Source: Desertifilum tharense IPPAS B-1220 (GTDB taxonomy: Bacteria > Cyanobacteriota > Cyanobacteriia > Cyanobacteriales > Desertifilaceae). From it: a stretch of 40,000 nucleotides of DNA. Under the pieces are notes generated by a model that saw only the letters and a program-made list of their open reading frames with translations, did not search any database and was not told the DNA's origin. A program made the translations under genes and the position numbers. This document shows positions 379 to 33,071 of this stretch, piece after piece. The DNA is taken from NCBI RefSeq assembly GCF_001746915.2, contig NZ_CM124774.1, positions 2,078,707 through 2,118,706 on the forward strand. Direction: 5' to 3'. Positions within the stretch are counted from its first letter, which is position 1. Every line of letters begins with the position of its first letter.

Positions 379-2739
379 TTACTTGCGGCTGGCTTGTAGG
401 GTGCGGTTGGTGCGTAGAAATTTGGATAACCACCCAATAGAGCGATCGCTATAACTCTTGAGGCCGAGTAAAGTCACGCTCATCACCAGTAATAAACTCA
501 CTAACCAGGCGATCGCGCTTGTGGGGTGTTGGTTCAATGTCATGAACTGATAGTAGAAAACGGCGACCCAATAGGCAATTCCCGTTGTCCAGCAGGCTAC
601 AAAAATCGTCCAGCCGAGATTGGTTTCTCGATAAATCGCGGCGGTGGCTGAGACACAGGGGAAGTAGAGCAACACAAATAACAAAAAGGCGATCGCGGCG
701 GTTGAACTGCCAAACCGGGCGGACATTTGCCCAAAGGTTGTGTAATGCACCTGTTGTTCTTCGGCGGCGGCTTCTAGATCGTCGGTACTGCCTAAAATTC
801 CCAATCCAATCGGATCTAGCACTTGATTAGTTAAATCTGCCAGGTTGGCGGGAATGCTAGCAAAGGCTTCGCCAATACCGCCCCAAAGGTCAAATTCTTC
901 CGGCGGTTCGCTGTTAGCCGCTTCCTGCTGTCCGAGTTGGGAGTAGAGCGAATCCATTGCCCCCACCATCACCTCTTTCGCAAAGACGCCTGTAAATAAT
1001 CCCACGGTTGCCGGCCAATTTTCCTGTTGAATGCCCATCGGCGCGAAAACGGGCGTCACGGTGCGACCAATGGCGCTGAGAATCGAATCTTGGCTATTTT
1101 GTTTGCCAAAAGAACCGTCAACGCCCACGGAGTTAATTAACCCCAAAATCACCACCATAATCACGATCATTTTGCCCGCTTTGGTAATAAAGGCTTTGAG
1201 CCGATCCCAAGCGCGGAGCAAGACGCCTTTAAAGGTGGGGATATGGTAGGGGGGTAACTCCATGACAAACGGCGCAGCATCCCCCCGGAAAAGGGTTTGC
1301 TTCATCACTAATCCGGTGAAAATGGCGGCGAGAATGCCGAGGATATACAGGATGAAGACAATATTTTGTCCGTTGGTGGGGAAAAACGCCGCGCAGAATA
1401 GGGCATAGACGGGCAGACGCGCCCCGCAGGACATGAAGGGATTCATGAGGATGGTCATCAGGCGATCGCGCCGATTTTCTAAGGTGCGAGTTGCCATAAT
1501 TCCGGGAATATTGCAGCCAAAGCCCACCATCATCGGGACGAAGGATTTGCCCGGAAGCCCGACAAAGCGCATCAGCCGATCCATGACAAAGGCTGCCCGC
1601 GCCAGATAGCCAGAATCTTCAAGAATGGCGAGGAAGATAAACAGCAAGCCAATTTGAGGAATAAAGGTGGCTGTGGTTTGAATCCCGCCGCCGACGCCAT
1701 CAGCCAGCAAGCCAACTAACCAGCCAGGGCTATTGATTTGCTCCAACAGGTGAGCCGTTCCGCCGACAAAGAGGGTGCCAATGCCAATATCAAAAAAGTC
1801 GATAAACGCGCCGCCGAGGTTAATGGAGACGAGAAACATTAGATACATCACCATCAAGAAGATGGGAATGCCTAACCAGCGGTTGAGGGTGAAGGCGTCA
1901 AGGCGATCGGAAACGCTTTGCTTGACGCGATGGGTATGTTCTACGGTGTCTTGAATTAAATGGCGAATCCAGGTATAGCGACTGTCGGCAATTAAGAGGT
2001 CGGTATCTTCTCCGAGGGTACGATGAATCCGATGGCGATGTTCGATAATGCGTCGCAGGGTGTCTTGTCCGAGATCGCTGAGGTGGCGATCGTCGTATTG
2101 CAACAGGTTTAGGGCAAACCAGCGCAGGTTCGCGGGGGGAGTCGCGGAGGTGGTTTCTAGGATTGAAGTTAAATCGGCGATCGCTTCTTCAATAACGGGC
2201 GGATAGGCAACGTAGGTGGTGGGGACTTTGGGATGGGCAAGGGCTTGATGAATGGCGGCTTGTAATTCTGGCAGACCTTTGCCGCTATGGGCGCTTAGGG
2301 GAATGGCAATCGCGCCTAAGCGTTCCGAAAGCTGTTGCGGATCGATGCGAATTTCCCGCTTGCTGGCTAAGTCGATCATGTTGAGGGCAATTAGGGTGGG
2401 GATGCCCATTTCTAGAATTTGCGTGGTGAGGTAGAAATTCCGCTCTAGGTTGGCGGCATCCACGATGTTGATAATCAGATCGGCTTCGCCAGATAGCAAA
2501 TAGTCCCGCGCTACGAGTTCGTCTAAGCCGGTGGTGTTGTCTCCGGCATCTACGGAGTAAACCCCAGGTAAATCGACAACGACGATCTGCTGCCCCTGGA
2601 AGCGATAGCTGCCTTCTTTGCGTTCCACGGTGACGCCGGGCCAGTTGCCAACGTGCTGGTTGGCTCCGGTTAAGGCGTTGAAGAGGGTGGTTTTGCCGCA
2701 ATTGGGGTTGCCGACTAGGGCGATGGTGGGGGGTTTCAC
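379..2739 (-). CDS. feoB: Ferrous iron transporter FeoB
   Basis: 786 aa. N-terminal G domain (GNPNCGKTTLFNALTG, DLPG) followed by a long polytopic membrane domain. The start is GTG at 2739-2737, overlapping the feoA stop (GTGA). Confidence 0.95.
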   Translation of the reverse strand: MKPPTIALVGNPNCGKTTLFNALTGANQHVGNWPGVTVERKEGSYRFQGQQIVVVDLPGVYSVDAGDNTTGLDELVARDYLLSGEADLIINIVDAANLERNFYLTTQILEMGIPTLIALNMIDLASKREIRIDPQQLSERLGAIAIPLSAHSGKGLPELQAAIHQALAHPKVPTTYVAYPPVIEEAIADLTSILETTSATPPANLRWFALNLLQYDDRHLSDLGQDTLRRIIEHRHRIHRTLGEDTDLLIADSRYTWIRHLIQDTVEHTHRVKQSVSDRLDAFTLNRWLGIPIFLMVMYLMFLVSINLGGAFIDFFDIGIGTLFVGGTAHLLEQINSPGWLVGLLADGVGGGIQTTATFIPQIGLLFIFLAILEDSGYLARAAFVMDRLMRFVGLPGKSFVPMMVGFGCNIPGIMATRTLENRRDRLMTILMNPFMSCGARLPVYALFCAAFFPTNGQNIVFILYILGILAAIFTGLVMKQTLFRGDAAPFVMELPPYHIPTFKGVLLRAWDRLKAFITKAGKMIVIMVVILGLINSVGVDGSFGKQNSQDSILSAIGRTVTPVFAPMGIQQENWPATVGLFTGVFAKEVMVGAMDSLYSQLGQQEAANSEPPEEFDLWGGIGEAFASIPANLADLTNQVLDPIGLGILGSTDDLEAAAEEQQVHYTTFGQMSARFGSSTAAIAFLLFVLLYFPCVSATAAIYRETNLGWTIFVACWTTGIAYWVAVFYYQFMTLNQHPTSAIAWLVSLLLVMSVTLLGLKSYSDRSIGWLSKFLRTNRTLQASRK

Positions 2740-3374
2740 GAGTCACCTCCTACAATGATTTCGACCATCAGGGCGTCGGCTTCGTGTTTCCGCAAACTCA
2801 GCTTATAACCGCGCACTTCAATTTCTGTGGGGTCTCCGAGTGGGGCGTGGCGGTTAACGCGCAGTTCGGTTCCGGGGGTGAGTCCCATTGCCAGTAATTT
2901 GCGCTTGTAGTCGCGGGCGGTGGGTTCGTAGCCAATGACTCTGAGGTGGGCACCAATGGCGGCTTCTCGGAGTTTGAGGGTGGAAGTAGGCGATGGCATA
3001 TCCATAGGGGAATGGCTCCTGGCGGGTGGAACGAGGGCATCGACAACGAGAATCTGTTGGGCCATTTCTGCACCCACTCCTAAGCGTTGGGAGCCGCTGG
3101 AGTTGTACAGGGCGACGATCGCCGATCCGGTGCCCGTGCGACTGATGATTTGCAAGATGACGCCCGGTATAAATCCCATCCCTAGGAGTCGGTGATTGGA
3201 TTCGCCGCAGTTGAGGGAAAGGATGCGGACGCGATCGCCAACTTGCCGAGCCGATAGGGGCAGGATTTGAGGACAGGCGCTCTCTGGCGGGCTGGCGGCC
3301 TCTAGATGGTTCTGCCAGCCCCGATGCCGGAGCCTTCTTAACGAGCGATTAACCCAATTACGTCCACTAGGCAT
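2736..3374 (-). CDS. feoA: FeoA-family protein with two tandem FeoA domains
   Basis: 212 aa. Two FeoA-like segments: VGDRVRILSLNCGESNHRLLGMGFIPGVILQIISR... and IGAHLRVIGYEPTARDYKRKLLAMGLTPGTELRVNRHAPLGDPTEIEVRGYKLSLRKHEA. Coupled to feoB by a 4-nt overlap. Confidence 0.85.
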   Translation of the reverse strand: MPSGRNWVNRSLRRLRHRGWQNHLEAASPPESACPQILPLSARQVGDRVRILSLNCGESNHRLLGMGFIPGVILQIISRTGTGSAIVALYNSSGSQRLGVGAEMAQQILVVDALVPPARSHSPMDMPSPTSTLKLREAAIGAHLRVIGYEPTARDYKRKLLAMGLTPGTELRVNRHAPLGDPTEIEVRGYKLSLRKHEADALMVEIIVGGDS

Positions 3375-4195: not shown

Positions 4196-5803
4196 TCAAC
4201 CAATGCCCAGAATTTGCCGCAACAGGGCTAGCTCTTTAGAAGCGGGTTGAAAACGACCCCGTTCCACATCGCGCACCCAACTCTGGCTTTTGCCAATTTG
4301 ATGGGCGAGCGCCCGTTGACTGAGCTGGAGCTGTTTGCGTGCCTCTGCAATTTGTGGGCCGGAAAGCGTGAATTGAGAGGAGAGTAATAACTGAGTGCGG
4401 CTTTTGCGACGGCGCGTTTGTTTGGCTTTCGCCGAGGTCGGTTTTTGCCAATCGTCCGGTAACTCAAAACGCAGCAAACGAGCATTCATCAGGCGGTTCC
4501 ATTTGCCTTTAGGAGCCGCATCAGTGAGCCGAGAATTGCGATCGCCATCATTAATCCAAAATTCTAGCGCCGCTTCTGGATCGTCTGGTAAATCGGCAAG
4601 TTTAGCCCACAGGGGTTGAATTTCCACCGGGTAAGTTACCGGATCGAAAATGGGTTTAATGCCGTAGTGGTTTAACACCTCTAAATCGCTTTCAAAAGCT
4701 CGCAGCAACCGCTTTCTCCCTTCGAGTTGAGTGGAAACCTGCATTAACTTTGTTTCCCCGTAAGCCACTCGCATCAGGGTGGGAACGGTAATGCGCTGTT
4801 CTTGTCCCATTTTGGTTTTAAACAACAACCACAACAGGATACGGGCAGCTCCTTCGTGTTGCTGCCAAATGCTCATAATGTTAGCGAGCAGCGTTTTGGG
4901 TAGCGTTCCGTATTGATAAAAAGCCGTCTGCTGTTTGGAGCCTTTGCGGTTTAAGAAGTAATAAGCCCATAACCCAGCTTTGATTTTAAAGGTTAAACCC
5001 GTCAGATGCTTGCATCCGAGTTCGTCTTCTTGAAAATAATGTTCGATGTCGAGCAAATACCAGAGGCGGCTGGCGTTTAGGGAAAATCCCTTCATTTTTC
5101 CCTGCGACTGCCACTGGAGAGTGACGGAAATTTTGCACGGCTGTTGAGCGAGTTCTTTAATTAAGCTTAATTTGGCGGTTTTGCTGAGGTCTTTGCGTTT
5201 GTCTAGACCGAGGTAGGTTTCAATTTGGCGATCGCTAATGCTAAATTCCTGTTGCCACGGCTGTTCGAGTGCAGTGGCATAGGCTGCATAAATCAAATGC
5301 AGACAAGCCGCCCGAATATCAAACCCCTCCAGCGCCGTCAACGCCTCTGGCGCATCTAACGCCACGCAAGGCTGAGAATCAAACGCATCCGTCACCTGGA
5401 ACGTCATTAAACTCTGACCTTGGTTAACCTGGCGTTGATAGTAAAGTTTTCCCTCGCTATCGGTGCGCCACGGAAGCGAGTCGCGTTGGGCCAAAATGTT
5501 GCACAATTCCCAAATGGCGATCGCCGAAGCAAAAGAATTCGTCTTACCATTAGCAAACAAGTCAGGCTGCGTTGGCGTTCTCTGCGTTGTCTTGCATCTC
5601 CCTTTTTTCGCCTGAAGCGGAATTGGAGAGTCTACAGGACAAACCAGCTTGCACTGCGGCTCTGGATAATACCCCTCGCAATTGTTACATAGCGTTGGGT
5701 CGATCCAAAACTCCTGACCCTCAATCTGAGAAATCGCCCCCGTAGGGCAAAGCGGAATACAAGTATCGCACTGAGTACACCGATTGGTAATAGCGTAAGG
5801 CAT
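4196..5803 (-). CDS. cnfR: CnfR/PatB-type nif transcriptional activator (N-terminal 2x[4Fe-4S] ferredoxin-like domain, C-terminal XRE HTH)
   Basis: 535 aa. The N-terminus (CTQCDTCIPLCP ... CNNCEGYYPEPQCKLVCP) resembles fdxN. The C-terminus is LSGPQIAEARKQLQLSQRALAHQIGKSQSWVRDVERG (HTH_XRE). This architecture matches PatB (Anabaena) and CnfR (Leptolyngbya boryana). Confidence 0.85.
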   Translation of the reverse strand: MPYAITNRCTQCDTCIPLCPTGAISQIEGQEFWIDPTLCNNCEGYYPEPQCKLVCPVDSPIPLQAKKGRCKTTQRTPTQPDLFANGKTNSFASAIAIWELCNILAQRDSLPWRTDSEGKLYYQRQVNQGQSLMTFQVTDAFDSQPCVALDAPEALTALEGFDIRAACLHLIYAAYATALEQPWQQEFSISDRQIETYLGLDKRKDLSKTAKLSLIKELAQQPCKISVTLQWQSQGKMKGFSLNASRLWYLLDIEHYFQEDELGCKHLTGLTFKIKAGLWAYYFLNRKGSKQQTAFYQYGTLPKTLLANIMSIWQQHEGAARILLWLLFKTKMGQEQRITVPTLMRVAYGETKLMQVSTQLEGRKRLLRAFESDLEVLNHYGIKPIFDPVTYPVEIQPLWAKLADLPDDPEAALEFWINDGDRNSRLTDAAPKGKWNRLMNARLLRFELPDDWQKPTSAKAKQTRRRKSRTQLLLSSQFTLSGPQIAEARKQLQLSQRALAHQIGKSQSWVRDVERGRFQPASKELALLRQILGIG

Positions 5804-9534: not shown

Positions 9535-9942
9535 TTATACCGTTACTTCTTCTAATTCATCCAGGGTGTGGGATTGCTGTTTCAAGACTTTGCGTAACCA
9601 GGGGGGAGGATTGCCGTTGAGGGTTTGGACTAATTTATTGAGAATTTCAATAATTTCGTCATCCTCGCTATTGGCTTTAATGGGGGTAACGTTCCGGCGA
9701 ATCAGGCGGGCGGCGGCGCTTCCCCCAATGGCAGAAACATAAACAATCGTGCAATCTGCTAGGGCTTCGAGTTTTGGGACTAATTTGTCTTCGTTCCCGT
9801 CTTCTTTGAGGTCGCCAGCAAATTCAAGCGTTTCGATAAACTGGAAGCCTTGGGGGGTGACATCATAGACGGCGAGTTGTTTAGCCCACCCGAAATGAGC
9901 ATTAATGTGAATCAAATCATTGGTGGCGAAGGCTATTTTCAT
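9535..9942 (-). CDS. nifX: NifX (FeMo-cofactor intermediate carrier)
   Basis: 135 aa. MKIAFATND...[13 protein letters not shown]...[17 protein letters not shown] matches the NifX/NafY fold family. The start overlaps the nifEN 3' end by 26 nt. Confidence 0.85.
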
Positions 9943-12793
9943 GGTGCTTCTCCGTTTCCATCTCTAAAAATAAGTTGCCAATCTCAAACAAAAGCTGCAT
10001 AGTGCCGCGATAGCCAATGGTGGTGCGTTGGCCGTTACCCAAGCGGTCAAAGATTGGAAATCCGAGGCGATAGAGGGGTATATTGAGACGATGAGCGATC
10101 GCGCTGGCGTTGGAATTCGCAATCAGCAAATCACTTCCCACGGCGAGTTGCTCAAAGTCATCTAAATCGCCAATCGTCACGGTTTCAATCGGCAAATTTT
10201 CCAATAAAGGAGATTTGGTGGTGGTGACTGCGGCGTGAATTTCTGCCCCCATGAAGTGCAACCACCAAGCAATGGAGTACAGTAAATCCGGTTCTAGGGC
10301 CAAAGATACCCGCTTGCGACCTAAATAGAAGTGAGTATCGAGCATGGCATCTTGCAACTGGCGGCGCATTCTGCGGTACGTGTCTGGCACGTCTACCCCA
10401 CTCAAATCGCTTAAAGCCTGCAAAAATCGATCGACCGCCTCTAACCCAGTCAGTTGGGGGAAAACCTCGTAGGGAATGCCAAAGCGCTGTTCGAGGATAT
10501 CGGCGGCTGTTCGCATACTTTCCCCGATAGCGAAGGTATAGACAGAACGCCCAATATTGCGTAACTGAGCAACGGTGGTTCCTCCCGCCGTCACCGCGCT
10601 GTAGCTATCTTCTAAATGACCATCCAAAGAGTCCGACAGATCGGGGACAATAATAGCAGTTAGGCCAAACGCTGCGATCGCATCCTTGAGTTCTTGCACG
10701 TCGCCTGGAGTGAGGGCAGGCCCGGCTAAAATGGTAATTTGATCGGGTCTAGCAGAGTTAACCAGGGGCAGTTCCTTCACTAAACCTTCCACTGCCGCCG
10801 CAAACCCATCTTGCAACGAGCCTTTAAAGTCTGCTGTAGAAACCAATACAATCGGCAACTCCTCATCTGTGGGAGTCTGACTCAATAGCTGAGGCTGGCG
10901 TTTGCGGAACTCGCGCAGAATTCTTTCCATATCATCCCCACGGGTTTCCGTTAGCCCAGTGGTGCATAATCCAATGATTTCTGGCTTAAACTTCTCCACA
11001 ATCGTCAGAATTGCCTGTTCGACATTCTCTTCCCCACCTAAAATCGTGGTAACTTCCGTCATCGCCGTCGTTGCGAGGGGAATAGCTTCCCGGAAATGCC
11101 GCACTAGCATGACTTTGGCAAACGCCGTACAGCCTTGGGAACCGTGAAATAAAGGCATCATCCCCTGAATTCCCAAGAAAGCCAGCGCCGCCCCCAAAGG
11201 TTGGCTTTGTTTGAGAGGATTAATTGCGATCGCCTTTTTCGGAGTCACAATTTGAGTAGGAGGGTGGGGGGAAAGGAGTGCAAAGTTCCGAGTTCCAAGT
11301 TCCGAGTAAGGAAGAGGGTGGGGGGATGGAGACTTTGCTGCTAACTTCTCACTCTCTTCCCACTCAGCACTCAGCACTTTACACTCAGCACTTAGAGAAG
11401 CACTCAGCACTTTACACTCAGCACTCTCTTCCCAAGGGGCTACCTGCCGCACTTGCTGCCAGATGGGACTGTAGAGGGCTTCTTCCAACTCTCGCGCCAT
11501 TTCCACCATGCCTGCATACCCGGCATAGGAATGATGGCGTTCCTGGTTAATATCTAAAAAGGGAATTCTGGCTTTTAGGGCGGTGTATTGGTTGCGTCCG
11601 CCTGCAATCAGCATATCAGCGTTGGTTTGGGCAATGACGCGCAGCAATTCCTGAGCGTTGCCCTTTTCCAACATAATCCCATCTTGACCGAGCAAGAGTT
11701 TAATCCGCGCCTTATCTTCTTCCGTGCTTTTCTTGGTACTGGTGGCTACCACCTGCATCCCCAAGTCCTTCGCGGCTGAGACAATCGACCAACTTTTAAC
11801 GCCGCCCGTATAGAGAACCACCCGCTTTCCTTGCAGGCGATCGCGATAGGGTGCTAAGGTGCGATCTAAAGTTGCCGTTTCCTCTGCAATCAGGCATTCT
11901 ACCCGGTCTTGCAAATCCGCATCGCCCAACTTTAGCGCCACATTTCGCAAACAGCGATTCATATCCTCAACACCGTAGAACGACTCCTCAATGTAAGGAA
12001 TGCCATAGCGTTCTTCCATCTTGCGGGCCATATTAATCAACGCTTTAGAACAAATCATCACGTTGAGTTTGGCGCGATGGGCATAGGCGATTTCTTGGTA
12101 ACGAGCATCGCCCGTAATTTTCGCAAGAACTCGAATCCCTAGCTTTTCAAATAGGGGTAAAACATTCCACAATTCCCCGGCAATGTTATATTCCCCAATC
12201 AAATTAATATCGTAGGGCGTCGTATATTCCGGTTCTGCGGTACCCACCACATATTCCAGTAAGGCTTCGCCCCCTACCCGATTTCCCAAGTTCTTGCTAC
12301 CAATAAAACCAGGAGAATTCACCGGAATAATCGGCGTCCCCGTCTTTTTCGCCGCCTTTTGACACACCGCATCCAAGTCATCGCCAATTAAAGCAGTAAC
12401 GCAGGTGGAATAGACAAAAATTGCGGCGGGTTGATAGCGCTGTTGGACTTCCAAAATAGATTGATACAGGCGCTTTTCACCGCCAAAAATCACATCATTT
12501 TCGGATAAATCGGTCGTGAACCCCATCTTATAGAGCAAAGGGCCAGAGGAAAGACTGCCGCGACTGCCCCAGGAATTCCCCGCACAAGCAATCGGACCGT
12601 GAACTAAATGAGCCGCATCCGTAATCGGAACGAGGGCAATCATCGCGCCATCAAAGGCACAGCCCCCTTGCGCTGCACCGGGTTGCGCTTGTTGGGTACA
12701 GGCTTTATTTTTCTTGTCTCCGTGCTTCTGGTGGTTGTGTTCGCAACCCGGTTCAGTCAGCAGTTCTTTAATTTTGCCTTGGGTCATTTTCAT
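9917..12793 (-). CDS. nifEN: Fused NifE-NifN FeMo-cofactor scaffold (single ORF)
   Basis: Uninterrupted 958 codons. Residues 1-454 are NifE (GCAFDGA..., ...[34 protein letters not shown]). Residues ~515-958 are NifN ([41 protein letters not shown]...). Residues 455-514 are repeat-derived. Confidence 0.9.
11252..11431 (-). repeat. Mosaic heptamer-repeat copy embedded in frame between the NifE and NifN moieties
   Basis: The sense strand reads GGGAAGAGAGTGCTGAGTGTAAAGTGCTGAGTGCTTCTCTAAGTGCTGAGTGTAAAGTGCTGAGTGCTGAGTGGGAAGAG...CCATCCCCCCACCCTCTTCC...CGGAACTTGGAACTCGGAACTTTGCACTC...CCCCCCACCCTCC. The same modules occur at 24217, 30082, 34261 and 35153. Confidence 0.9.
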
Positions 12794-20229: not shown

Positions 20230-21660
20230 TTAAGCTTGATAGGTTTGCAGATATTGGTCGTAAAACGCTCTGGCTACGGTTTCAATTACGTCATAGGCTT
20301 CAACTGATTGAATTCCAGCTTTTTGCAACTCGGTTTGCGGACAGTGACCGATCTTAGACACCAACACCGCTTTGCAATCGCCGATCGTTTGGATAATGTT
20401 GTCTAAGGTGGCTTCCTCGCCGTAACCGCTTTGGCAATAATGGTCAATCTTGCGATGACCGACAAACCGCGCTTCGTTGGCATCCACTTCGTAAATCATG
20501 AATTCCTTAGCATGACCGAAGTGTTGATTGACTAAGCCGCCGCCTTTGGTTGCCACTGCCACTAGGACTTTCGGACTATCAACCACTGGGGTAGCAGCCG
20601 TGACAGCCGCTTTGGCCCGTTTGAGTTCGGCTTTGAATTTCTCAATCCCAGCATGGACTTCTCGCCGCGTCTCCAGGTTGTACTCTGGTGCCATTTCCTT
20701 GAATTTGTCTTTGGTAAATTCTTGGGAACGGTCTTCTCCAAGCAGTCCCACGGCATCAGCGCGACATTGGCGGCAGTGGCGCATCATTTTCATGTTGCCA
20801 GAACAACTATCTTGAACGGCTTTCAGTTCCTTGGGGTTAGGGCCGCGCTGTCCGGTTAAGCCGAAGTGGGTGCCGTGTTCGGGGGCGGAAATCAGGGGCA
20901 TAATATTGTGGAGGAATGCGCCTTTTTCCCGAATCACCTGATTGACTTCTACGAGGTGTTGGTCGTTGATGCCGGGAATCATCACGGAGTTAACTTTACA
21001 AAGAATATCGGCTTCTTTTAAGGCTTGCAGGCCTTCCATTTGCCGTTCGTGCAAGATGCGGGCAGCTTCTAAGCCTCTGTAGCGCTTGCGCTTGTAGTGA
21101 ACCCAAGGATAGATTTGGGTGCCAATCTCTGGATCGACCATATTAATCGTGATCGTGACATGATCGATGTTGAGTTGTTTGATGCGATCGACGTATTCCG
21201 GCAGCATCAGACCGTTGGTTGACAGACAGAGTTTGATGTCGGGGGCTTGGTCGGCAATCAGTTCAAAGGTGCGAAAGGTCTTTTCGGGGTTGGCTAGCGG
21301 ATCGCCGGGGCCTGCGATGCCCAGAACGGTCATCTGGGGGATTTTTCCGGCAATGACGAGAACTTTGTGTGCGGCTTCTTCTGGGGTGAGGAGTTCGCTG
21401 ACAACACCAGGGCGGCTTTCGTTAGCGCAGTCGTATTTGCGGTTGCAGTAGTTGCATTGAATGTTACAAGCAGGAGCAACGGCAACGTGCATCCGGGCGT
21501 AGTGGTGATGCGCTTCTTCGCTGTAGCACGGATGTTTTTCAATCCGTTCCCGCATTTTGGCGTCAATGGCGTCGGCGGTGTTGGTGCTGCTACTGCTGCA
21601 AGCGCAATTCCCGGTTTTTTGAGTAGGTGGAGTGAGGAGCGTTGTGGGTGGTGGTGTCAT
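20230..21660 (-). CDS. nifB: NifB radical-SAM FeMo-cofactor biosynthesis protein
   Basis: 476 aa. Radical SAM motif [15 protein letters not shown] and a C-terminal NifX-like domain ([26 protein letters not shown]). Confidence 0.95.
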
Positions 21661-21919
21661 CGAATTTCCAATGAATTAGGTGAGCATACCGCCACTGTGG
21701 AGATGCTTGGGCATCACTCCACTCACTTCAACTCCGCGATGAGCGCTAATCAAAATCTGCGTTCTCGATTGGAGGACTAGTGACTGGCGTTAGTAGGGTT
21801 ATACCAGCCCTCCTCGGCGCGTTACCTGCTAGGTCGCCGATCAGAATTATTGGAATATTAGGAATGTACTCAGCGGCTCTATTGCTGATTCTGCCGACGT
21901 TTAAATTTTCTTTAGGGTC

Positions 21920-21956
21920 GGGGTGCGAGTATTTTTAATAAGAGGGACGAGTATTT
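21920..21956 (-). promoter_or_regulatory. Bipartite 37-bp direct-repeat element facing nifB (candidate activator/CnfR site)
   Basis: The minus strand reads AAATACTCGTCCCTC-ttattaa-AAATACTCGCACCCC, with half-sites 22 bp apart. The proximal edge is 260 bp upstream of the nifB ATG. About 33/42 positions match the element at 22427. Confidence 0.5.
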
Positions 21957-22043
21957 ATGAGGGTGGGGGACTGGCTTTCTTGCACTCAGTTGAAAACAAG
22001 AGAGCGCAAGCAATGGAACGGAATTTTTACTTTTTATTCAAAA

Positions 22044-22057
22044 GTAGATTGGGGTAC
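22044..22057. promoter_or_regulatory. NtcA-consensus site GTA-N8-TAC
   Basis: GTAGATTGGGGTAC matches GTAN8TAC exactly. No properly spaced TAN3T -10 box was found on either side. Confidence 0.3.
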
Positions 22058-22426
22058 TCAAACTGAGAGGAAACCTCTGCTTGAGTTGCTTCCTAAATTC
22101 TTCTTAATTTATTTCTGTGTTTAATTTAGCACTTTCACGTTTTATTTTGCAACTTTAGATACTTTTCGGAAAATTTAAGATTTAGTCCAAGGGATTATTG
22201 GTATCATAAGCAACATAAAAGGCGGGCGATCGCAGTTCTCCCAATCTCAGCAAAGCGCCCACCCCAATAAAGGTTGTCAGAGCAAGCACAAGGTCTAAGT
22301 CGGCAGCCATGCAGCGACCCAATTGAGTACAAAGTTTGACTCAACTAGCTCCCTGCTAAAATGCCCTCAAAGCTTGCTAGGACTTGAGTTTGGCTTGAGT
22401 GTAAAATTACAAGCCCCCTTTGTTGT

Positions 22427-22463
22427 AAATACTTGTCCCCCTGAATTAAAATACTTGTCCCCC
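22427..22463 (+). promoter_or_regulatory. Bipartite 37-bp direct-repeat element facing nifP (candidate activator/CnfR site)
   Basis: AAATACTTGTCCCCC-tgaatta-AAATACTTGTCCCCC, with half-sites 22 bp apart. The distal edge is 157 bp upstream of the nifP ATG. It is the inverted counterpart of 21920-21956. Confidence 0.5.
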
Positions 22464-22619
22464 CACCCTCAAACAAACTTGAAAGCTTTAAGTTTTAAGC
22501 CTTTTCGGGACTGAGTACAGCTTTAATACTTCTAATAAATTCAATTCACAAAAATCAAAAGTTGGGTAAAAGGCATCTGATATACAAAAGACACGACTCG
22601 CCTTCAACCCGAAACAGCA

Positions 22620-23393
22620 ATGGTACAGATCGACGAGCATCTCTTCACTCAGAAAGCAACAGTCATTCAACAAACACTGGCGACAGCGATCGCTCGCACC
22701 AAATCCAGTTTGGACGCTTTGCTTTCCCTGATGACGCCCCTGCAATCTTCTCCCCTAGTAGAAGATTTCCGAATGATTTTTGAGCGAGATCCGGCTGCTC
22801 GTCACTGGTTAGAAGTTCTCTGTTGTTATCCGGGGTTCCACGCGCTCATCAGCTATCGGTTTGCCCACTGGCTGCATCGTCGGAATATCCCTTTCTTTCC
22901 CCGCCTCATTTCCCATCTCGGACGATTCTTCACCGGAATTGAAATCCATCCAGGAGCCGTTCTGGGTAAAGGAATTGTTATCGATCATGGCATGGGCGTC
23001 ACGATTGGAGAAACCGCGATCGTCGGAGATTATGCCCTCATCTATCAGGAAGTCACCCTAGGGGGTACGGGCAAAGAGAGCGGGAAACGGCATCCCACCA
23101 TCGGGGATCGCGTTGTCATTGGGGCGGGAGCCAAGATCCTCGGTAATATTCGCATTGGTCACTCTGCTCGCATTGGTGCAGGTTCTGTTGTTCTGCGAGA
23201 TGTCCCCAACCATTGTACGGCAGTCGGCGTGCCGAGTCGGAACTGCTGCCGCACGCCCAAGAGCGATCGCGCTTCAGAACCCGAAACGACATTGGATTCA
23301 ATTCGCCGCCTTGCAGATCGAATTGAAAATCTAGAACGACAATTGCAAACCTTAACACTTTCTCAGAGCCAAAACCATGCAAACGCCTCTTAA
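22620..23393 (+). CDS. cysE: Serine O-acetyltransferase, nif-cluster copy (NifP/CysE)
   Basis: 257 aa. ...[31 protein letters not shown]... followed by hexapeptide repeats ([26 protein letters not shown]..., [26 protein letters not shown]). Confidence 0.85.
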
Positions 23394-32084: not shown

Positions 32085-33071
32085 GAAGTTCATTTCAGCC
32101 GCTTGGACTTTCTCAATTTGTTTCTTCTTAAGAACCAGCATGACTTGAGAAAGCATGACTGCAACTAAGAAAGCAATTAAGCCTTTCACGCGAGTCGCGC
32201 TTTGTAGAACAATTTCGGTATCAACTTGACCAAAACCGCCCACGTTGGGGTTATTGCTTAAAGGTACGCCTGCTGCGATGGTTTGACCTTCAGAAACCAC
32301 TAGTTCTAAGCCAGCAGGAATTTTATCGGTGACAGTGGTACCATCTTCAGCTTGGATGCTGACTTCATAAGCGCCATCTTCAAGTTGCTGAATTTGGCTG
32401 ATGGTTCCGGTCGCAGAAGCGTTATAAATTGCGTTGTTGGTCTTTTCTCCAGTGGGATACACTTGTCCGCGACCCCGGTTTCCGCCAACGTGGACGGAGT
32501 ATTTACCAAATTGGAGATTTTTGTCGATACGCGGATCGGGAGAGAGTACGGGGAAGATAATTTCTTGATATTGTTCGCCCGGTAAGGGACCAACAATAAT
32601 CACGTTCTCAGAGTTTTCGTTATAGGTTTGGTAGTACAAGTCCCCGACTTTTTCTTTCATTTCTTCGGGGATGCGATCCGGGGGGGCAATTTTGAAGCCT
32701 TCGGGAAGCATTAATACAGCACCCACGTTCAATGGGCCTTTGCTACCATCGCCTTGGAGTTGTTGTTGGGTGGTATCGTAGGGGATTTTAACAACAGCTT
32801 CAAAAACGGTATCGGGTAAAACGGACTGGGGAACTTCAATTTCCGTCTTTTTTGCCCCTAGGTGGCAGTTGGCACAAACGATGCGTCCGGTTGCTTCGCG
32901 GGGGGTTTCTGGGGCGGTTTGTTGCGCCCAGAAGGGATAAGCCGCAGCCGCTTGGGGATAGGCAAGATCGCTGGCGAGGAAAAGGCCAAGAGAGGCGATC
33001 GCAACTAGGGTCGTTTTCAGCAAGGCCTGTTTGCTGCGACGCCAAAGCGCTAATACAGAAACGTTTTTCAT
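32082..33071 (-). CDS. petA: Cytochrome f (apocytochrome f precursor)
   Basis: The ATG at 33071 gives 329 aa. Signal peptide, then [27 protein letters not shown], and a C-terminal TM anchor. The track ORF starts at TTG 33083. Confidence 0.93.

Follow-up and report, generated by a model that had tools for sequence, protein, structure and literature searches.

Mirror-image repeat modules between nifB and nifP of Desertifilum tharense as probable CnfR-responsive elements

Introduction

The regulator CnfR acts when oxygen is low and nitrogen is deficient. The closest described counterpart of the locus studied here is the CnfR element of Leptolyngbya boryana (Tsujimoto, Kamiya, Fujita 2016, Mol Microbiol 101:411). 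There, as in our locus, divergent nifB and nifP genes share a control region with one conserved element per direction, cnfR lies in the same cluster and two tandem A/C-rich boxes (IV-V and VI-VII) adjoin a TGAGTACA-type box (I-II). We analyzed the corresponding region of Desertifilum tharense IPPAS B-1220 within a 40-kb stretch of contig NZ_CM124774.1 (positions 2,078,707 to 2,118,706), which we call the window. A first-pass annotation, made from the letters alone, had noted that two 37-bp units, each built from a pair of 15-mers, face nifB and nifP in mirror arrangement, and had proposed them as candidate CnfR cis-elements.

A second described system is that of Anabaena variabilis, with its motifs 1A-1C and 2A-2B (also CS1-CS3; Vernon et al. 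2017; Pratte and Thiel 2021; Pratte, Vernon and Thiel 2025). A preprint from the Thiel laboratory (10.1101/2025.04.01.646610) describes three TGAGTACA motifs (1A, 1B, 1C), both for the nifB-nifP region of L. boryana and for the upstream regions of nifB1, nifB2 and nifP in A. variabilis; A/C-rich motifs 2A and 2B lie between 1B and 1C and are taken to correspond to boxes IV-V and VI-VII of L. boryana. According to that preprint, altering boxes IV-V or VI-VII (2A or 2B) abolished CnfR activation of a reporter in Synechocystis, altering 1B (boxes I-II) had little effect, and Nostoc CnfR is cited as binding fragments with such regions in vitro. The conserved elements are presumed to be CnfR sites, and the promoters of nifB1 and nifB2 carry an extended -10 without a -35 (PMC8510180). 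According to papers from the Fujita laboratory, canonical nif clusters of cyanobacteria conserve this element upstream of nifB. Knowledge of CnfR binding, and of dependence on CnfR, low oxygen and nitrogen deficiency, comes from L. boryana, A. variabilis and Nostoc PCC 7120 alone.

A functional analogue exists in proteobacteria, where NifA, also an oxygen-responsive and nif-specific activator, works from upstream activator sequences (TGT-N10-ACA) 100-200 bp upstream of nif promoters, often between divergent operons, and requires DNA bending to reach the polymerase. The two systems differ in their parts: NifA is a sigma-54 enhancer-binding AAA+ protein, whereas CnfR joins an XRE-type helix-turn-helix (HTH) to a ferredoxin-like protein; NifA sites are inverted rather than direct repeats; and they serve sigma-54 -24/-12 promoters instead of extended -10 promoters.

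Results

The nifB/nifP intergenic region of D. tharense spans 959 bp (21661-22619). Within the window, the 15-mer AAATACTYGYMCCYC matches exactly at 21920-21934 and 21942-21956 on the minus strand and at 22427-22441 and 22449-22463 on the plus strand. Both pairs are spaced 22 bp start to start; one faces nifB and ends 260 bp from its ATG, and the other faces nifP and ends 157 bp from its ATG. All of these coordinates, strands and distances had been given by the first-pass annotation and were borne out by our sequence search, as were the flanking genes by matches to TIGR01290 (nifB) and TIGR01172 (nifP).

Allowing up to two mismatches, the sole further match to AAATACTYGYMCCYC in the window lies inside secA, and 0 of 100 shuffles reach five such matches. 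We also scored the window with a weight matrix built from 67 unique half-sites of other cyanobacteria, excluding the window itself and a near-identical relative (L001). Each of the four sites scored at least 21.9 bits (range 21.9-23.3), and the next best site in the 40 kb, which is also the best outside the intergenic region, scored 10.5 bits. Together, the shuffles and the cross-species matrix rule out a chance or low-complexity repeat. The same matrix detected no CnfR-type site upstream of cnfR, hesA, nifH, feoA, the phosphoketolase gene or others in the window. The heptamer AAATACT had previously been counted five times; the copy reported inside secA is there, but the count missed a sixth copy at 32498-32504 on the minus strand, within the cytochrome f gene. 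With six occurrences against 4.5 expected, and 36 of 100 shuffles reaching six, the heptamer alone is not enriched.

For comparison across species, a NifB-seeded scan with one genome per species yielded 68 cyanobacterial nifB loci and 12 proteobacterial or acidobacterial control loci, 711 kb in all. Searching these with the consensus of the window only, we found that nearly all cyanobacterial nifB upstream regions carry a nifB-pointing 22-bp tandem with 0-6 mismatches in 30 positions; the best pairs in the 12 control loci have 11-14. This phylogenetic footprinting, which the first-pass annotation had named as a check on its proposal, recovered a nifB-facing tandem in 63 of the 68 cyanobacterial loci and in none of the controls, and a nifP-facing tandem in 21 of the 27 loci that have a divergent nifP. 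Among the five cyanobacterial loci without a tandem, three involve truncated or short contigs or a fragmentary nifB match, and two have a degenerate tandem only.

Among the loci sampled, the tandems always have fixed polarity and spacing, in lineages from Trichodesmium to Nostoc, and matches on the same strand are spaced 22 bp (108 cases), 23 bp (7) or 44 bp (27), with almost nothing else. The tandems sit upstream of nifB or nifP or, at three loci, on the strand opposite to nifB with no detected nifP match, and none occurs downstream of the nifB start, within nifB or later genes, in the 711 kb. The closest genome, that of Desertifilum sp. SIO1I2, has a NifB that is 97% identical and an intergenic region that is 97% identical.

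In L057 and L065, and in L067 as well, we found the tandem roughly 2.5 kb upstream of where nifB is matched, and the aligned part of NifB starts no earlier than residue 10, 53 or 66. Two such loci, with matches from residue 10 or 53, are additional to the five named above. The late start of the match, together with the distant tandem, suggests that nifB is interrupted by an inserted element in these loci. The nifB gene of Calothrix NIES-4101 is reportedly interrupted in this way.

Aligned across species, the 15-mer pair is the best-conserved part of a rigid module of approximately 270 bp. Read toward the gene that it faces, its parts are, in order, a TGAGTACA box (1A), a spacer of roughly 72 bp, a TGAGTRYA box (1B), three units phased at 22 bp, an ACCC motif with an A/T tract, a TGAGTACA box (1C), and an extended -10 (TGnTATAA). 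Anchored alignments gave the cross-species consensus ctGAGTACAAA (box 1B), unit 0 (nAAAnCCTGAACCCC), 7 nt, unit 1 (AAATACTnGnACCCC), 7 nt, unit 2 and tACCCnAAAAAAAnTTTTT, and then, after 47-50 or 57-62 nt, GGnTTT..TTTGAGTACAA (box 1C) followed by nnnTAATaAaTCcAATAAAT. Within the module, the units carry the most information, and each has two conserved sub-boxes, AAATACT and ACCCC. Between 1B and 1C, the only strongly conserved blocks are the 15-mers, the degenerate third unit, and the ACCC motif with its A/T tract. The 37-bp unit described at first is a real pair and accounts for two of the three units in an array. Overlooked at that stage were the remaining unit, the TGAGTACA boxes on either side, and the existing publication of the element. 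Unit 0 is detectable in 67 of 89 modules, compared with 0.2% of background positions, box 1B (TGAGTRYR) lies 52-54 nt before unit 2 in 75 of 89, and box 1A lies 123-128 nt before unit 2 in 66 of 89.

Both modules of the window follow this plan, with internal distances that agree within 1 bp, and a repeat finder independently returned mirrored arms of 58 nt and 18 nt over the units and box 1C. On the nifB side (minus strand), unit 2 is preceded at 126 nt by box 1A (TGAGTACC, 22053-22060). A degenerate TGAGTACA (TGAGTGCA, 21981-21988) forms box 1B and adjoins unit 0 (GAAAGCCAGTCCCCC, the degenerate third unit, 21965-21979), which stands at a conserved offset, 23 bp before unit 1 (AAATACTCGTCCCTC, 21942-21956, 21.9 bits). 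Unit 2 (AAATACTCGCACCCC, 21920-21934, 23.3 bits) starts 22 bp past unit 1 and is identical in Desertifilum sp. SIO1I2. The ACCC motif and A/T tract (GACCCTAAAGAAAATTTAAAC, 21899-21919; consensus tACCCnAAAAAAAnTTTTT) come directly after unit 2, in the 58-nt mirrored arm I1. Box 1C (21865-21872) has the exact sequence TGAGTACA and, with its conserved TAAT..CAATAA tail, covers 21847-21872 in mirrored arm I4; 48 nt separate unit 2 from the G of its GAGTAC. The predicted extended -10 (TGGTATAAC, 21798-21806) was placed by pattern evidence only.

On the nifP side (plus strand), box 1A is an exact TGAGTACA (22324-22331), 125 nt before unit 2, and a degenerate box 1B (TGAGTGTA, 22396-22403) keeps the conserved offset. 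Unit 0 (AATTACAAGCCCCCT, the degenerate third unit, 22405-22419, 9.7 bits) lies 22 bp before unit 1, again at a conserved offset, and units 1 (22427-22441) and 2 (22449-22463) are both AAATACTTGTCCCCC, at 22.1 bits each. After unit 2 come the ACCC motif and A/T tract (CACCCTCAAACAAACTTGAAAGCTTTAAGTTTTAAG, 22464-22499) and box 1C, again an exact TGAGTACA (22512-22519), whose TAAT/AATAA tail extends to 22545 (feature 22512-22545), as judged by mirrored arms and alignment. The distance from unit 2 to the G of GAGTAC is 49 nt. The extended -10 predicted for nifP, also from pattern evidence only, is TGATATACA (22578-22586). Exact TGAGTACA boxes in the window are therefore the nifP-side 1A and both copies of 1C, and box 1B is degenerate on both sides. 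A TACT/AGTA or GTAC core common to the units and the TGAGTACA boxes would comprise about 4 shared nucleotides, too weak a likeness to claim.

Three copies of CTTGAGT, listed earlier as additional short repeats, are at the positions given for them. The one at 22394-22400 marks the start of box 1B on the nifP side, which adjoins unit 0, and the copy at 22383 is an extra partial one. The third, at 22080-22086, starts a mid-intergenic stretch, 22080-22096 on the plus strand (TTGAGTTGCTTCCTAA), similar to box 1C plus tail (TGAGTACATTCCTAA on the nifB side; 80% in inverted repeat I7). This stretch lies outside both modules and points to nifP.

Each box 1A overlaps a further motif. On the nifB side, GTAGATTGGGGTAC at 22044-22057 is a perfect GTA-N8-TAC NtcA-type box; we rejected it as an NtcA site, as the Desertifilum relative at 97% identity has lost it and, of 69 1A boxes elsewhere, only 3 have such a box alongside. 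On the nifP side there is a GT-N10-AC at 22327, which is not conserved.

The extended -10 (cTGnTATAA) lies 68-71 nt past GAGTAC in 64 of 82 modules, and both extended -10s of the window stand at the conserved distance of 68 nt. At the predicted promoters of the window we found no canonical -35/-10 pair, and a generic sigma-70 scan gave one weak match, located inside the repeats and no better than in shuffles. From the extended -10s, the nifB start site is predicted near 21791 on the minus strand, for a leader of about 131 nt, and the nifP start site near 22593 on the plus strand, about 27 nt before the ATG. For A. variabilis, mapped start sites lie 33-34 nt before the ATG for nifP and 328 nt before the ATG for nifB1, and the median predicted nifB leader in other species is about 300 nt.

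In the 76 modules in which we located box 1C, the gap between unit 2 and box 1C measured, apart from a single case of 37 nt, either 47-50 or 57-62 nt, and never 51-56 nt. Both gap classes recur across several lineages and can even coexist in a single genome, one on each side (L015, L030, L058). Counted in helical turns, the intervals between the three TGAGTACA boxes are about 7 and about 11 or 12.

Sequence around the predicted nifB start is also conserved. A block after the nifB-side extended -10 (21781-21797, minus strand, around the predicted start) recurs in the nifB-facing modules of about 60 loci, with the consensus TATAAAtCttATAtCGCCAAtCAC and a conserved ATAtCGCCAAtCAC block; the window has CTACTAACGCCAGTCAC there. 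A different block, TGaTATAAGCAggA, is conserved on the nifP side. Within the predicted nifB leader of the window, 14 nt are complementary to nifB codons ~9-13 (21622-21635 with 21714-21727, minus strand), and the predicted long-range stem between leader and coding region would enclose the start codon (minimum free energy -51.6 kcal/mol, z = -2.0). Expression of A. variabilis nifB2 is reported to need sequence within the 5' coding region.

The genes on both sides fit a nif cluster. The nifB gene (20230-21660, minus strand; TIGR01290, E = 1.8e-205) is the first of an operon, nifB-fdxN-nifS-nifU-nifH-nifD-nifK-nifEN, followed by NifX-associated and hesA-like genes. On the other side, a nifP-type serine O-acetyltransferase gene (22620-23393, plus strand), identified by TIGR01172 (E = 2e-73) and its neighbors, heads a divergent set of nifP, asr1405-like, dpsA and nifV. 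The window also encodes a 535-residue CnfR/PatB-type regulator (4196-5803, minus strand), recognized by its cysteine motifs, HTH and homologs. It has two ferredoxin-like (4Fe-4S) cysteine motifs, C9/12/15/19 and C39/42/51/55, and a C-terminal XRE-type HTH at residues 482-534, the architecture of CnfR/PatB (PMC8510180). Full-length homologs with 61-80% identity are found across cyanobacteria of diazotrophic genera, including one from A. variabilis ATCC 29413 at 63%.

The nifE and nifN genes are fused (9917-12793, minus strand; 958 residues; NF011047, bifunctional NifEN). A feoB and feoA-domain gene pair (379-3374, minus strand) lies downstream of cnfR on the same strand, and beyond the nif genes on the nifP side are a glutamine amidotransferase-like gene, a phosphoketolase gene and a transaldolase gene; no CnfR-type unit was found upstream of any of these in the window. 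HIP1 octamers (GCGATCGC), which are typical of cyanobacterial genomes, occur at 22228-22235, in the center of the intergenic region, and at 22686-22693, inside nifP.

Discussion

The sequence, geometry, conservation, orientation rule and gene context of the two modules between nifB and nifP are directly observable, and together they match what has been described for CnfR: the modules are flanked by nifB and nifP with a cnfR-type gene in the window, contain three TGAGTACA-type boxes, lead to an extended -10 without a -35 (by pattern only), and are conserved in cyanobacteria. The window 15-mers occupy the position of 2A and 2B, between 1B and 1C, and share their A/C-rich composition. The two sub-boxes in each unit, AAATACT and ACCCC, would also fit the paired numbering IV-V and VI-VII. 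We therefore consider it likely that each 37-bp unit forms the core of a CnfR-responsive upstream activating module, and that the two modules are mirror images of each other, one for the nifB operon and one for nifP. The cis-element proposal of the first-pass annotation gains support from the footprinting, from the position of the repeats between TGAGTACA boxes, and from the cnfR-type gene.

How might such a module work? Under low oxygen and nitrogen starvation, the CnfR encoded at 4196-5803 would become active and would occupy the phased repeats on one face of the DNA, with centers approximately 136, 158 and 181 bp upstream of the predicted starts. It would then activate a weak extended -10 promoter that lacks a -35, probably by bending or looping of the DNA across the A/T tract and box 1C, as is suggested by the A/T tract, the fixed boxes and the quantized spacing. 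For Desertifilum, we infer direct contact between CnfR and the 15-mers, along with its stoichiometry, the bending and the start sites.

Several points weigh against this interpretation. XRE-type HTH proteins usually bind inverted repeats as dimers, so that direct repeats two turns apart would be an unusual target, and the pseudo-palindromic TGAGTACA boxes are a more conventional one. The start sites in the window are pattern predictions. The putative equation of the 15-mers with boxes IV-VII/2A-2B follows position, composition and a secondary description, not a letter-by-letter match, and L. boryana is not among the 80 nifB loci that we compared. Finally, motif effects differ between genes; for A. 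variabilis nifB1, loss of 1A or of 1B each halves expression (PMC8510180; 10.1101/2025.04.01.646610).

In one alternative, CnfR binds the TGAGTACA boxes and the AAATACTnGnACCCC repeats bind another conserved cyanobacterial protein, a co-activator or an architectural factor. The 15-mers would then lie in a CnfR-dependent module without being the sequence that CnfR recognizes. The GTAC dyad core of TGAGTACA, which is more typical of HTH dimers, the halved expression of nifB1 without 1A or 1B, and the placement of the TGAGTACA boxes, as rigid as that of the units, would all suit this arrangement. It is harder to reconcile with the Synechocystis reporter, in which activation needed 2A and 2B and hardly depended on 1B, and with the units being the part of the module richest in information; the second factor would also have to exist in Synechocystis, which is not a diazotroph. 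On balance, we regard this alternative as unlikely.

A role of the repeats in RNA, as part of a long leader or of a divergent non-coding transcript rather than as DNA sites, is highly improbable. Strict strand polarity would also fit such a role, and long nifB leaders do exist in the predictions for other species. However, the conserved extended -10 is 113-115 nt downstream of the units, the A. variabilis start sites for nifB1 and nifP imply that the motifs are upstream of transcription, no Rfam match was found at E <= 1, and the 22-bp period and 11-bp spacing steps point to the geometry of the DNA helix. Cyanobacterial genomes are rich in short dispersed repeats and a HIP1 site lies nearby (22228-22235), but a chance similarity or a remnant of such a repeat or mobile element with no regulatory role can be dismissed, given that, across the loci sampled, the tandems occur upstream of nifB or nifP, or at three loci on the strand opposite to nifB, with fixed polarity and spacing, and that the 40-kb window has no other strong copies.

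On the preferred reading, that of CnfR-responsive modules, the element is an orthologous instance of an already known system; the observation of it is correct and not new. The one detail here that may be new is the distance from unit 2 to box 1C, which varies only by increments of about 11 bp; we found no statement of this rule in the literature covered, which excludes key primary papers. The quantized gap indicates selection for helical phase. We offer only tentatively the stronger idea that the module as a whole forms a stiff nucleoprotein scaffold in helical register, not a loose collection of sites. CnfR on the repeats would then have to be held on one particular face with respect to box 1C and the extended -10, which would suggest a wrapped or looped higher-order complex.

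Within the CnfR family of elements, the Desertifilum locus has its own features. It differs from the L. boryana locus in having nifV on the nifP side and a fused nifEN, a layout distinct from the L. boryana gene order quoted in PMC5943405, and in its degenerate box 1B (TGAGTGCA and TGAGTGTA). With A. variabilis it shares an extended -10 without a -35 and a short nifP leader (about 27 nt predicted here versus 33-34 nt mapped there), but in A. variabilis nifP is unlinked to nifB and regulation is split between CnfR1, in heterocysts, and CnfR2, in anoxic vegetative cells. In Nostocales, the gap between unit 2 and box 1C on the nifB side is mostly 57-60 nt, compared with 48-49 nt here. The units are absent from the 12 proteobacterial and acidobacterial nifB loci that we examined.

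A tool-free reading of raw sequence thus found a real regulatory site. CnfR and its cis-element are being used to transplant nif clusters into non-diazotrophic phototrophs (PMC5943405), and while the practical gain from our analysis is modest, the three-unit array, the box positions and the predicted promoters could guide promoter design. The 11-bp quantized spacing offers a simple, testable rule for communication between activator and promoter. More broadly, CnfR and its cis-element form the master switch for the nitrogenase genes of cyanobacteria, and the Desertifilum-type cluster adds one more orthologous instance of that element.

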